Shown: positions 14,018-17,874 of the stretch, piece by piece
How positions within the stretch are numbered: the stretch's first letter is position 1
Layout of the letters: every line of letters starts with the position of its first letter
DNA from: a virus
Lineage: Duplodnaviria > Heunggongvirae > Uroviricota > Caudoviricetes
Length of the DNA stretch: 64,000 nt
IMG/VR virus record: IMGVR_UViG_2718218305_000006
Direction: 5' to 3' (one strand)
Translations under genes and position numbers: made by a program
Notes under the pieces: generated by a model
What the model was told of the DNA's origin: nothing
Database searches by the model: none
The model's input: the letters and a program-made list of their open reading frames with translations, nothing else

Positions 14018-14599
14018 AATGTAATAATTACATACTATTAGTGATTCTCATGCATCGTAAGCGGCTCGCCAGAACCGTATTGATATTTACTGAGGAGCCT
14101 GTACATAGATTTGTGTAATTGCCTGATTTTGATATGTTCAATCCAACATCAAAAGCAGGTTAATTTATGGACGAAAAACAGTTGCAGGCTCTGGCTAACG
14201 AACTGGCCAAAAATCTCAAAACCCCTGAAGATCTCAGCCAGTTCGATCGCCTGCTGAAGAAAATCAGCGTTGAGGCAGCTCTCAACGCTGAAATGTCCCA
14301 CCATCTGGGCTACGATAAAAACCAGCCTAAACCGGGTGCCAACTCCCGCAATGGCTATTCCACAAAGACCGTTATCACCGGTGATGGCCACCTGGAACTA
14401 CGCACTCCGCGCGATCGTGATGGCTCTTTTGAACCGCAACTTGTGAAGAAAAACCAGACCCGGATCACCGGGATGGATAACCAGATCCTGTCGTTGTACG
14501 CCAAAGGCCTGACAACCCGCGAAATAGCGGCTGCGTTTAAAGAGCTGTATGACGCTGATGTCGTAAGCGTACAGCGAGGGCCGTATTGACGGGGATGTG

Positions 14600-16138
14600 T
14601 TATTCAGCTGGCAGTGCTATGCGCCACGGAAGCAGTTCGCTGACCCGGTTGACCGGCCAGTCTGCTATGACGCCAAGCACATGGCGAAGGTAGCTTTCTG
14701 GATCCACGTCATTCAGTTTGCACGTCCCGATCAGGCTGTACAGTAGCGCTCCCCGCTCACCACCATGATCAGAGCCGAAGAACAGGAAGTTTTTACGACC
14801 CAGACTGACCGCCCGCAGGGCATTTTCAGCGATGTTGTTGTCGATTTCCACCCAGCCATCGTTCGCATAGTACGTCAGTGCCGGCCACTGGTTAAGTGCG
14901 TACGCGAACGCCTTCGCCAACTCTGAGTGTCGCGACAGGGTCTTCATCTTTTCACGCAACCAGCTTTCCAGGGATTTCAACAACGGTTTCGTTTTTCGCT
15001 GACGTTCAGCAAGCCGCTGCTCTGCCGGCATTCCCCTTATATCCGCCTCTATGGCGTACAACTGACCGATCTGCTCCAGGGCTTCTTCCGTCAGTGCTGA
15101 CGGGATGCGGACGTGCACATCGTGGATCTTTCGGCGGGCATGAGCCCAGCAGGCAGCTTCCGTTATCCCACCATTGCGATACAGCTCGTTGAACCCGGCG
15201 TACGCATCCGCTTGCAGCACACCGCTGAAGCAGGCAAGATGAGTCTGCGGATGGATGCCTTTTCTGTCCGGGCTGTAAGCGAACCACACTGCAGGTGCCA
15301 ACGCTGACCCTGCATTGCGGTCATCACGAACATACGCCCACAACCGCCCGGTCTTCGTCTTCTTATTACCCGGCAGCAGTACCTGGACCGGGGTATCATC
15401 GGCATGGAGTTTGCCGTCAGTCATGACATAGCCATGAAGCGCCTCTTCCAGCGGAGACAGCAGCCGGCAGCATGCATCCACCCAGCCCGACAGCAGTGAA
15501 CGCCTCAGCTCCACACCTTGCCGGCCGTATATTTCTGACTGGCGATACAGCGGGGTGTGCTCTGCATACTTCGAGGTCAGCACGCGGGCCAGCAGCCCCG
15601 GTCCGGCGATACCCCGCTCGATGGGCCGCGAAGGTGCAGGTGCCTGCACGATGGCATCGCACTGAGTACAGGCATGTTTTTCCCGTACCGTCCGGATAAC
15701 CCGGAAGGCGCTACGCATCAACTCCAGCTGTTCGGCGGTATCCTCGCCCAGATAGCTCAGTGAACCGCCGCAGTTCGGGCAGCACGGCGCCGCAGGCAAC
15801 AGTCGCTTTTCGTCACGGGGTAGTGATTCAGGGAACGGCTTACGGGTGCGGGTCTGACGCAACGGACGCTGTACTGCCGGGTCATACACCCTACCAGTCA
15901 GCGTATCGCTCTCTTTCTGAAGCCGGTTCAGATCGGCTTCCATTTGTGCGATACGGCGGGAGACTTTTTCGGAACGACTGCCGAAGTTCATCCGGCGGAG
16001 TTTATCCAGCTGCGCCTGCAGATGGTCTATTTCGCGCTCCCGGTTGCTCAGCTTTTCCTGCAGGGCGTGGATCAGCGCTTCCTGTTCGGCCAGGCGCTGT
16101 TTCAGCAGGAAGATGTCGTCAGAAGAGATGTCGTTCAT
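14600..16138 (-). CDS. IS66-family transposase (orf3/TnpC), 512 aa
   Basis: N-terminal coiled-coil/leucine zipper, Cys-rich region (CCPNCGG…CTQC) and conserved IS66 core. Confidence 0.85.
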
Positions 16139-16187
16139 AAGCCCGTATTTTACCGGGCTTATTCTGTGACAACCAGGATAAAGAGAT

Positions 16188-16535
16188 TTACAGCATGGTC
16201 AGGGAGGTCAGCAGCCGCTTAGGCTGTCGCCAGTCGATACCTTCCAGCAGCATCGCCAGCTGCGCCTGCGTAAGGAACACTTTGCCATCACGGGCTGACG
16301 GCCAGGCGAAGCGCCCACGCTCCAGCCGTTTGGTCAGGAGGCACAGTCCGTCACCGGTGGACCACAGCAGTTTAACCTGACTGCCGCTGCGGCCCCGGAA
16401 AATGAAAACATGGCCGGACATGGGATCGTCTTTCAGCGCCGTTTGTACTTTCGCAGCCAGGCCGTTGAAGCCATTTCTCATATCGGTGATACCGGCAACC
16501 AGCCAAATTTTGGTCCCGGAAGGTAACGGGATCAT
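16188..16535 (-). CDS. IS66 Orf2 (TnpB) accessory protein
   Basis: 115-aa ORF; conserved IS66 orf2 sequence (…[20 protein letters not shown]…); overlaps orf1 stop. Confidence 0.85.
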
Positions 16536-16933
16536 CGCTTCAGTTCCTGTATCAGCAGAGTCAGGAGCTTTTCGCTGACATTGCCATTGAAGCGGAGCGT
16601 CCCGTGCCGGAACGTTACCTCACAGCTGATACTGAGGGTTTCCGGGTCCTCTGCGAGCGATTCTGGCTGTTCGGCAGCTGCATCGAGAGTCACAGGAAGT
16701 AGCTGGGGGCTCTCTGAAGAAGGTAATAGCAGCTTTCCCTCGCGCCATTGTTGTCGCCATTTGAACAACAGATTGGCGTTAATGCCATTTTCAAGAGCAA
16801 GTTTTGAGATGGATATCCCGGGTTCACAGGAGGCAGCAACGAGCTGCTGTTTAAATTCGGGAGGATAATTAGGGCAGCCTTTTCGCCTGCCGGGAGTCAC
16901 ATTTTTCTGCATATCTGATACTTTGGTTCCCAC
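16532..16933 (-). CDS. IS66 Orf1 (TnpA) accessory protein
   Basis: 133-aa ORF with HTH-like N-terminus, first gene of the IS66 operon. Confidence 0.8.
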   Translation of the reverse strand: MGTKVSDMQKNVTPGRRKGCPNYPPEFKQQLVAASCEPGISISKLALENGINANLLFKWRQQWREGKLLLPSSESPQLLPVTLDAAAEQPESLAEDPETLSISCEVTFRHGTLRFNGNVSEKLLTLLIQELKR

Positions 16934-17874
16934 TACTTATTTGGTGGACACCACTTTGTCTAATTCGTCAGATTCTGACCAGACGGTTCAGGCTGTACGC
17001 TTACCTGATGTCTCACCGGCGCTGGTATCGAAGGTCACCGATGCCGTTATGGAGCAGGTAGTCGAATGGCAAAACCGGCCACTGGATGCGGTCTATCCCA
17101 TTGTTTATCTTGACTGTATTGTCCTGAAGGTTCGGCAGGACAGTCGCGTAATCAATAAATCCGTATTCCTCGCACTGGGTATCAATATCGAAGGCCAGAA
17201 AGAGTTACTGGGTATGTGGCTGGCCGAAAACGAGGGAGCGAAGTTCTGGCTCAATGTGCTGACTGAACTAAAAAACCGCGGCCTGAACGATATTCTCATA
17301 GCCTGTGTCGACGGGCTGAAAGGCTTCCCGGACGCTATCAACACGGTGTATCCGGAAGCCCGCATCCAGCTGTGCATCGTGCATATGGTGCGCAACAGCC
17401 TGCGGTTCGTTTCCTGGAAGGACTACAAAGCCGTCACCCGCGACCTGAAAGCCATCTACCAGGCCCCCACAGAAGAAGCAGGCCAGCAGGCGCTGGAAGC
17501 GTTCGCCAGCGCCTGGGACAGTCGCTACCCGCAGATAAGCCGGAGCTGGCAGGCAAACTGGACCAACCTGGCGATGTTCTTCGCTTACCCGGCAGATATC
17601 CGCAAAGTCATCTACACAACCAACGCCATCGAGTCGCTGAACAGCGTAATCCGGCATGCCATCAAAAAACGCAAGGTGTTCCCGACGGATGACTCAGTGA
17701 AAAAGGTCGTGTGGCTGGCAATCCAGGCGGCTTCACAGAAATGGACGATGCCACTGCGGGACTGGCGTATGGCAATGAGCCGCTTTATTATCGAGTTCGG
17801 TGACCGCCTGGACGGTCACTTCTGAGAAAAGGCATTTACACAGAATCGTGTACAGGGTCGATTTTACTCGTTAA

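Follow-up and report, generated by a model that had tools for sequence, protein, structure and literature searches.

An ISEc8 copy inserted in an IS256-family transposase gene at the cargo end of prophage Sp12

The locus and its two insertion sequences

The window, a stretch of 64,000 nucleotides, carries two nested insertion sequences (IS) between the type III effector gene nleG7 and a dinI-like gene. The features of the locus are as follows.

13367..14017, plus strand: nleG7 type III effector gene, left neighbour (Pfam T3SS_NleG, E=5e-48; PGAP and Sakai annotation)
14057..14094, plus strand: 38 bp (GTAAGCGGCTCGCC...) left from the end of a third IS, another IS66-family element, which the IS256-family element truncates
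14095..14562, plus strand: left part of the IS256-family host element, 468 bp; left inverted repeat from 14095, transposase codons 1-132 at 14167-14562
14555..14562: target-site duplication, copy 1, CTGATGTC, abutting the left end of ISEc8
14563..17004, minus strand: ISEc8, IS66 family, complete 2442-bp copy, identified by its length, its terminal repeats, and the duplication around it
14563..14575: ISEc8 terminal inverted repeat, tnpC-proximal end, GTAAGCGTACAGC, 13/13 against the reverse complement of 16992-17004
14600..16138, minus strand: tnpC, IS66-family DDE transposase, 512 aa, intact (Pfam DDE_Tnp_IS66, E=2e-106)
16188..16535, minus strand: tnpB, IS66 accessory protein, 115 aa, intact (Pfam TnpB_IS66, E=1e-38)
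16532..16912, minus strand: tnpA, IS66 accessory protein, 126 aa, intact (Pfam HTH_Tnp_1)
16992..17004: ISEc8 terminal inverted repeat, tnpA-proximal end, 13/13 with the opposite end
17005..17012: target-site duplication, copy 2, CTGATGTC, abutting the right end of ISEc8
17005..17859, plus strand: right part of the IS256-family host element, 855 bp; transposase codons 133-402 at 17013-17822, stop at 17823-17825, right inverted repeat ending at 17859
17875..18117, minus strand: dinI-like gene, last gene of prophage X (Sp12), right neighbour (Pfam DinI; ECs_2218, within Sp12 in Sakai)
18197..18258, approximate: junction of prophage X (Sp12) attR and prophage Y attL, placed by homology and the Sakai border

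The inner element is a complete copy of ISEc8. Its three genes were adjacent and intact, and all three exceeded the Pfam and NCBIfam cut-offs, with NCBIfam scores of 459 bits for tnpC (transpos_IS66, cut-off 180), 120 bits for tnpB (IS66_TnpB, cut-off 50), and 97.7 bits for tnpA (IS66_ISRel24_TnpA, cut-off 74), the tnpA start codon being taken from the PGAP annotation of an identical sequence. The tnpC product also matched the Pfam domains zf-IS66, LZ_Tnp_IS66, and IS66_C, and PGAP names it 'IS66-like element ISEc8 family transposase'. IS66-family terminal inverted repeats open with 5'-GTAAGCG, and an 8-bp target duplication is usual for the family. Both ends of the window copy opened with GTAAGCG; the repeats agreed fully over their outer 13 bp (GTAAGCGTACAGC), with matches at 21 of the first 29 positions. 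The duplication CTGATGTC abutted both ends exactly, and within 14001-18000 no copy of it was found beyond these two; a specified 8-mer recurs at an exact position with a chance of ~1.5e-5. The sequence-only reading had described an intact 2442-bp IS66-type element bounded by inverted repeats and flanked by an 8-bp target duplication, to be verified by exact alignment, and this alignment bore out the element base for base, with both the repeats and the duplication present. At the isoform level (>95% DNA identity, judged against the copies annotated in Sakai as 'ISEc8 Family: IS66'), the window copy was identical at 2441/2442 positions to the copy in prophage Sp12 and at 2440/2442 to that in Sp8, and it was 100% identical to a copy in strain FDAARGOS_293. 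Since the three genes and both ends are kept and the element lies 1-2 nt from other genomic copies, it is probably still transposition-competent. Sakai and FRIK804 carry nine ISEc8 copies each, eight of them at shared sites, and the FRIK804 table includes a copy at a coordinate that maps onto the window copy (PMC7430833). A recent stx2a::ISEc8 insertion shows that ISEc8 is active in O157 (PMC6776261).

The outer element spans 14095-17859 (3765 bp including ISEc8), and its transposase gene, antisense to the ISEc8 genes on the minus strand, is interrupted after codon 132. The left half covered positions 16-132 of the Pfam Transposase_mut profile and the right half positions 123-377 (E=4e-86). 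The left half was 100% identical to positions 1-468 of intact copies, and the right half agreed at every position with what Sakai lists as 'ISEic2 Family: IS256 partial'. Joining 14095-14562 to 17013-17859 gave 1315 bp with one unbroken ORF for a 402-aa Mutator/IS256-type DDE transposase, which scored 424 bits against NCBIfam transpos_IS256 (cut-off 150) and matched the solved IS256-family transposase PDB 6XG8 with E=2e-111. The inverted repeats of this element (GAGCCTGTACA... and ...TGTACAGGGTC) were imperfect, 23 of the first 30 positions being complementary, and the same ends were seen at five other loci. Shifted outer boundaries with TTTACT on both sides were rejected because these five other copies fix the ends at GAGCC...GGGTC.

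The outer element resembles the ISEic2/IS1414 group in its 1315-bp length, its single 402-aa Mutator-type transposase, and the 8-bp duplications found at other sites (ATGTGCAA in L008, and AGAGATTA for an IS1414 copy in L011). Its transposase was 96% identical to that of IS1414, whereas the DNA was only ~88% identical to IS1414 copies and ~93% identical to a copy that PGAP labels ISEic2. With >95% DNA identity to a named element taken as the isoform level, the two DNA values suggest that the element is a relative rather than an isoform of either. In addition, IS1414 has an overlapping frame for the EAST1 toxin (astA), and this frame lacks an ATG in the window element. Target duplications in the IS256 family measure 8-9 bp. 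Unlike copies of the group elsewhere, the window copy had no target duplication at its locus, where the flanks read TTACTGAG and GATTTTAC; this is best read as a later rearrangement beside the IS and not as failed membership in the IS256 family.

The split lies upstream of the catalytic domain, and this copy would thus be unable to move itself. In the EDL933 and Z1834 chromosomes, the intact 1315-bp element was not found, the best match being only the 855-bp half, so no full-length chromosomal copy elsewhere would be available in these two strains to supply transposase in trans. The only long remnant of the IS256-family element in EDL933 and Z1834 is the one disabled by ISEc8.

Empty sites and the order of insertion

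Uninterrupted copies of the outer element were found between nleG7 and dinI in O55:H7 strains CB9615 and RM12579, strain 2013C-4465, O157:H- strain 493/89, and O157:H7 strain LSU61. When ISEc8 and one copy of the duplication were removed from the window, the reconstruction matched these uninterrupted copies at 1315/1315 bp. This 100% identity to the same-locus element in O55:H7, 493/89, and LSU61 indicates a simple insertion in situ, and the restored ORF together with the empty-site alleles in ancestral strains upheld the further claim that the IS66-type element interrupts the gene for the Mutator-type transposase in an IS256-family element. The locus is almost certainly a two-layer (strictly three-layer) IS pile-up at the cargo end of the lambdoid prophage Sp12 of E. 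coli O157:H7, with an older IS256-family element and a later ISEc8 insertion. The comparison shows that the IS256-family element already lay between nleG7 and the dinI-like gene in the O55:H7-like ancestor, and that one ISEc8 copy later transposed into it in the opposite orientation, making the 8-bp duplication CTGATGTC. From the distribution among strains, this insertion probably occurred once, on the branch to typical O157:H7 once the lineages of 493/89 and LSU61 had diverged, a timing read from a handful of ancestral-type genomes with clonal-complex A5 (e.g. G5101) outside the sample. The nest appears to have been vertically inherited since then.

It could be argued that ISEc8 entered the IS256-family element at another locus and that the two then moved here together, as one 3765-bp composite carried by the IS256-family ends, since the outer inverted repeats are intact and the unit is movable in principle by a transposase in trans. 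However, ancestral-type strains carry the uninterrupted 1315-bp element at exactly the same position with identical flanks, the outer element lacks a target duplication in the window, and the nest lay beside nleG7 in every region inspected, with the same annotation among the matches listed (the junctions occur in ~225 genomes each). By sequence comparison, the empty-site alleles effectively refute such an arrival, which we regard as extremely improbable. Equally improbable is an artefact of assembly or collapse. O157:H7 carries several ISEc8 copies (nine in Sakai), and multicopy IS elements are a classic source of misassembly, but the identical structure recurred in over 200 genomes finished independently of one another, Sakai, EDL933, and PacBio-era assemblies among them, and a perfect target duplication with exact restoration of the ORF is unlike the product of a misjoin. 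Nothing was found that contradicts the nested-insertion reading.

Flanks of the outer element and the prophage junction

The window's prophage X corresponds to Sp12 of the Sp11-Sp12 tandem at ydfJ in Sakai (J, lom, tail fibre genes, nleG2-4, nleG3', nleG7, the IS nest, and dinI), and Sp11 is the counterpart of the truncated-integrase prophage that starts at 62561. Compared with Sakai, the window has an extra complete prophage Y (~18258-62520) in between. Among 5,426 complete E. coli genomes, no match above ~95% identity was found to the left arm of prophage Y, and none above ~95% to the X/Y junction among complete RefSeq E. coli genomes.

The sequence-only reading placed the host IS exactly at the boundary between prophages X and Y. 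This did not hold: the att junction lies ~340-400 bp to the right, with the dinI-like gene in between, and the IS is older than prophage Y. Homology to the X-ydfJ junction of strain 2013C-4465 stops at ~18257, and the Sp12/Sp11 border in Sakai lies 67 bp past the dinI-like start codon, equivalent to ~18196/18197 in the window. In O55:H7 CB9615 and strain 2013C-4465, the nleG7-IS256-dinI block is directly followed by the truncated host gene ydfJ, and prophage Y is absent. Since dinI and then ydfJ follow the element in these two strains with no second prophage, the IS256-family element is older than the tandem arrangement and is located within prophage X. What it marks is the border of the nleG7 cargo module against the conserved dinI/att end of the same prophage.

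Both flanks of the IS256-family element are old rearrangement breakpoints. On the left, the 38-bp remnant matches the tnpC-proximal tip of complete IS66-family elements elsewhere, and the same remnant runs on for ~125 bp in prophages of O103:H2, O111:H8, and O145. On the right, the flank is dinI backbone without ~87 bp that are kept at the sister junction. Against the tail-fibre/dinI backbone, the 1019-bp nleG7 module (13076-14094) also ran in the opposite direction from its counterpart in the nleG7 prophages of O103:H2, O111:H8, and O145. Based on the inverted module, the IS66-family tip at left, the shortened dinI backbone at right, and the missing target duplication, we tentatively suggest, at somewhat less than even odds, that the IS256-family copy is what remains of an ancient inversion or deletion, mediated by this IS, in which the effector cargo of Sp12 was rearranged. 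If so, a type III effector cassette was inverted and moved to a new position by this element in the ancestor of O55:H7 and O157:H7. In the window, no other copies or fragments of either IS were found as possible inversion partners. An IS-free site joining the nleG7 flank to the dinI flank was not found in all complete E. coli genomes, where no place reached at least 80% query coverage.

A broader role for the outer element, as having created or as marking the tandem-prophage junction, with the nest acting as an active rearrangement hotspot, is unlikely. Some observations do point that way, namely that the X/Y and Y/Z junction regions are homologous from the right end of the IS (17860-17863) onward, that the IS256-family copy has no target duplication, that comparison with the nleG7 prophages of O103, O111, and O145 places a breakpoint on each side of it, and that deletions are known at the ydfJ tandem-prophage locus (PMC9997748, PMC7430833). 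However, the IS predates the tandem arrangement, as in CB9615 and 2013C-4465 the IS leads through dinI to ydfJ and a second prophage is lacking; 340-400 bp lie between the IS and the att junction; and the nest with its flanks is contiguous in at least 209 of 227 genomes. The published deletions at the Sp11-Sp12 locus were attributed to direct repeats common to both prophages and not to these IS copies (PMC7430833, PMC9997748). The suggestion that nested IS elements here are a likely hotspot for rearrangement therefore finds little support for the nest itself, which is stably inherited and contiguous in at least 209 genomes.

Distribution and use of the nest

The contiguous 6-kb arrangement with the nest occurred in at least 209 complete genomes; the left junction was present in 227 and the right junction in 223, leaving ~14-18 genomes with a junction present and the contiguous 6-kb arrangement absent, one of them the culture mutant RV06. 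The nest is real but ordinary, and it is already known, since 'ISEc8' and 'ISEic2 partial' are both entered at this place in prophage Sp12 in the RefSeq record for Sakai. The Sakai ISEc8 (NC_002695.2 2206654-2209095, Sp12) has the same 2442-bp length, locus, flanks, and orientation relative to the IS256 halves, and differs from the window copy by one substitution at element position 2213. In Sakai, an IS629/IS1203 copy additionally separates the dinI-like gene from the IS256-family element; this copy is missing from the window. No new mechanism or gene is involved, and the nest has little significance beyond bookkeeping, although it illustrates how IS debris piles up at the cargo ends of prophages. 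As a clean single-event structural marker, it could be used as a lineage-typing junction, with the nest marking typical O157:H7 and an intact IS256-family element marking O55:H7, sorbitol-fermenting O157:H-, and LSU61. The 30 matches listed for the contiguous nest were all O157:H7, O157, or E. coli given without a serotype.

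Structure of the nested insertion sequences

The nest consisted of an IS66-family element, ISEc8, lying inside an IS256-family element that resembles ISEic2 and IS1414.

Components of the nest
14095-17859: outer IS256-family element, imperfect inverted repeats GAGCCTGTACA... / ...TGTACAGGGTC
14563-17004: inner IS66-family element ISEc8, exactly 2442 bp
14600-16138, minus strand: tnpC, intact
16188-16535, minus strand: tnpB, intact
16532-16912, minus strand: tnpA, intact

The sequence-only reading had described a 2442-bp IS66-type element with inverted repeats and an 8-bp target duplication, and recomputation of its length, ends and flanking octamer confirmed this. 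The outer 13 bp of the terminal inverted repeats were perfect (GTAAGCGTACAGC), 21 of the first 29 positions matched, and the octamer CTGATGTC directly flanked ISEc8 on each side (14555-14562 and 17005-17012). The three intact genes were consecutive, all on the minus strand, and scored well over the curated cut-offs of IS66-family models in Pfam and NCBIfam. Judged by its sequence, this copy looks intact and is presumably mobile. ISEc8 is demonstrably mobile in O157 (stx2a::ISEc8 allele, strain 9000; PMC6776261).

It had also been claimed that ISEc8 splits a Mutator-type transposase of the IS256 family, and reconstruction supported this. Of the ORF fragments flanking ISEc8, one covered the first third of the Mutator/IS256 transposase profile and the other its last two thirds, and removal of ISEc8 with one octamer copy restored an element of 1315 bp with one 402-aa ORF. 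The score of this ORF against the NCBIfam model for IS256 transposases was 424 bits (cut-off 150), and the protein matched the solved IS256-family transposase 6XG8 with E=2e-111. ISEc8 was inserted antisense after codon 132, upstream of the catalytic core, leaving a 140-aa N-terminal fragment and a C-terminal part without a start. The interrupted copy is therefore unable to make its own transposase. A full-length helper copy appears to be absent from two strains, EDL933 and Z1834, whose chromosomes matched the 1315-bp element at best over its 855-bp half. A 102-bp fragment 93% identical to the element's first 102 bp was present in K-12 (~1.24 Mb), where it is annotated within a hypothetical protein, and in many other E. 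coli. In IS1414, the frame equivalent to 17332-17448 encodes the EAST1 enterotoxin (astA, MPSTQYIRRPASS...). The window frame was open (TLSTRCIRKPASSCASCIWCATACGSFPGRTTKPSPAT, then stop), but had ACG instead of ATG and had lost one of four cysteines; the window therefore holds a relative of IS1414 without EAST1 coding.

Empty-site alleles and distribution

The reconstructed 1315 bp matched uninterrupted copies from other E. coli with 100% identity; these copies were located at the same locus (nleG7 and a dinI-like gene on either side) with identical flanks. These copies, carried by O55:H7 CB9615, 2013C-4465, O157:H- 493/89 and O157:H7 LSU61, are true empty-site alleles. ISEc8 therefore entered a resident IS256-family element, and arrival of the whole nest as one unit was ruled out by the presence of these alleles at the identical locus. 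The stepwise model for the emergence of O157:H7 assigns O55:H7 to clonal complexes A1/A2, 493-89 to A4, and Sakai and EDL933 to A6, with LSU-61 regarded as ancestral to A5 (PMC3271280). From this placing of strains with and without the nest, which includes few ancestral-type genomes, we therefore infer that the insertion occurred on the branch toward typical O157:H7.

The 6-kb block around the nest (13000-19000) was contiguous in at least 209 of 5,426 complete E. coli genomes, and the matches listed (30 rows) were all O157:H7, O157, or of serotype not given. Of the two junctions of the nest, 227 genomes had the left one and 223 the right one. FDAARGOS_293 was identical base for base across the nest and left flank, and its PGAP annotation comprised 'IS256 family transposase' twice (each incomplete), 'IS66-like element ISEc8 family transposase', tnpB, and tnpA. 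The repeat_region features of Sakai, 'ISEic2 Family: IS256 partial' and 'ISEc8 Family: IS66' (2442 bp), adjoin nleG7 (ECs_2226) within prophage Sp12. The window ISEc8 differed by 1 base from this Sp12 copy and by 2 bases from the Sakai Sp8 copy. Nine ISEc8 copies each were reported for Sakai and FRIK804, eight at common sites, and the FRIK804 table includes one at 2138285-2140726 (PMC7430833). By the 6-kb block match, that copy maps onto the one in the window. Given these annotations and published copy tables, the nested IS66-in-IS256 structure is already known and annotated.

Position of the nest among tandem prophages

Genes around the nest and prophage Y
window start: tail region of prophage X (tape measure, J, lom, tail fibre, tail-fibre assembly genes)
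12081-12656: nleG, prophage X cargo, with nleG remnants next
13367-14017: nleG7, prophage X cargo, before the nest
17875-18117: dinI-like gene, after the nest
18301-19575: integrase of prophage Y, after the dinI-like gene
62561-63112: C-terminal integrase fragment, 183 aa, matching the disrupted left end of Sakai Sp11
63094-63975: truncated RecE-type exonuclease ORF, matching the same end

In O55:H7 CB9615 and 2013C-4465, the nleG7, IS256 and dinI block directly abutted the truncated host gene ydfJ, and the dinI-like gene is therefore the final gene of prophage X. Alignment of the X-ydfJ junction with the window placed the end of prophage X at ~18257, and the Sakai Sp12/Sp11 border corresponded to ~18197. 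By either estimate, the IS256-family element was 340-400 bp inside prophage X, and it was present before any second prophage took the site. The statement that it sits exactly where the cargo meets the boundary of prophage Y is therefore incorrect.

Downstream of prophage Y were a second dinI-like gene, the 552-bp integrase fragment, and the exonuclease fragment. The same set directly follows Sp12 in typical strains (strain 319; Sakai Sp11), which identifies X as Sp12 and the remnant as Sp11, with Y as an additional prophage in the tandem. Prophage Y (18258-62520), a lambdoid prophage, was complete, encoded an intact integrase of 424 aa, and lay in tandem between the Sp12-like X and the remnant resembling Sp11. 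At ydfJ, the source strain thus has three prophages in tandem. The left arm of Y had no match above ~93-95% among complete RefSeq E. coli genomes, unlike the adjoining nest, which was 100% identical to O157:H7.

The 538-bp stretch right of the IS256-family element (17863-18400) had a second copy, 96% identical, at the right-hand end of prophage Y (62129-62666), and homology restarted at most 3 bp from the end of the element. The element therefore marks where, within one prophage, the nleG7 cargo module gives way to the conserved dinI/att end. This direct repeat, located at both ends of Y, contained the dinI-like gene, the att region, and the integrase 3' end; homologous recombination between its two copies could readily remove prophage Y precisely.

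The sequence-only reading had further proposed the nest as a likely rearrangement hotspot, which was not supported as written. Of the 227 genomes that had the left junction, at least 209 kept the whole block contiguous, which makes the nest a stable marker passed on vertically. Roughly 14-18 genomes were discordant, having a junction but not the 6-kb block in one piece. Deletions are known at the ydfJ tandem-prophage locus, and were attributed to direct repeats common to both prophages and their proximity (PMC7430833, PMC9997748).

Flanks of the IS256-family element

No target duplication was found for the IS256-family copy at the nest locus, the flanks being TTACTGAG and GATTTTAC. Elsewhere, duplications of 8 bp flanked the copy in plasmid pE110019_65 (ATGTGCAA) and an IS1414 copy (AGAGATTA). 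Directly to the left was the tip of a third IS.

14057-14094: third-IS tip, 38 bp, GTAAGCGGCTCGCC... (GTAAGCGGCTCGCCAGAACCGTATTGATATTTACTGAG), matching the tnpC-proximal end of complete elements elsewhere

The tip, which carries no annotation in Sakai or from PGAP, is the end of an IS66-family element other than ISEc8, cut short by the IS256-family element. In the nleG7 prophages of O103:H2, O111:H8, and O145, the third-IS remnant ran ~125 bp beyond the O157 IS256-family insertion point. Comparison of window 13076-14094, the nleG7 module, with 4481-5500 of loci L012, L013 and L014 from nleG7 prophages indicated that, against the tail-fibre/dinI backbone, the module has opposite orientations in O55:H7 and O157:H7 on the one hand and in O103:H2, O111:H8, and O145 on the other. 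Its right breakpoint was the left end of the IS256-family element, the copy without target duplication. An IS-free join of the two flanks was absent from the E. coli genomes searched. Old rearrangement breakpoints therefore lie on both sides of the IS256-family element. The O55:H7/O157:H7 ancestor may plausibly have undergone an inversion mediated by an IS or an adjacent deletion; the window retained no further copy or fragment of either IS that could have served as partner.

In O103:H2 12009 (L012 5590-5625), the IS66-family remnant was directly followed by GAGCCTGTTTAAGATTCTGTGTAAAT, a short sequence that resembles the terminal repeats of IS256/IS1414-type elements and may be the lone end remaining from another IS256-family insertion close to this site. 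A ~170-bp repeat at 12741-12907, 83-87% identical to 11864-12038 and 61671-61842, comprised the tail-fibre-assembly 3' end and a terminator hairpin, and the copy at 12741-12907 sits between the two nleG cassettes. This arrangement suggests that effector cassettes were gained via recombination at the tail-fibre-assembly/terminator repeat.
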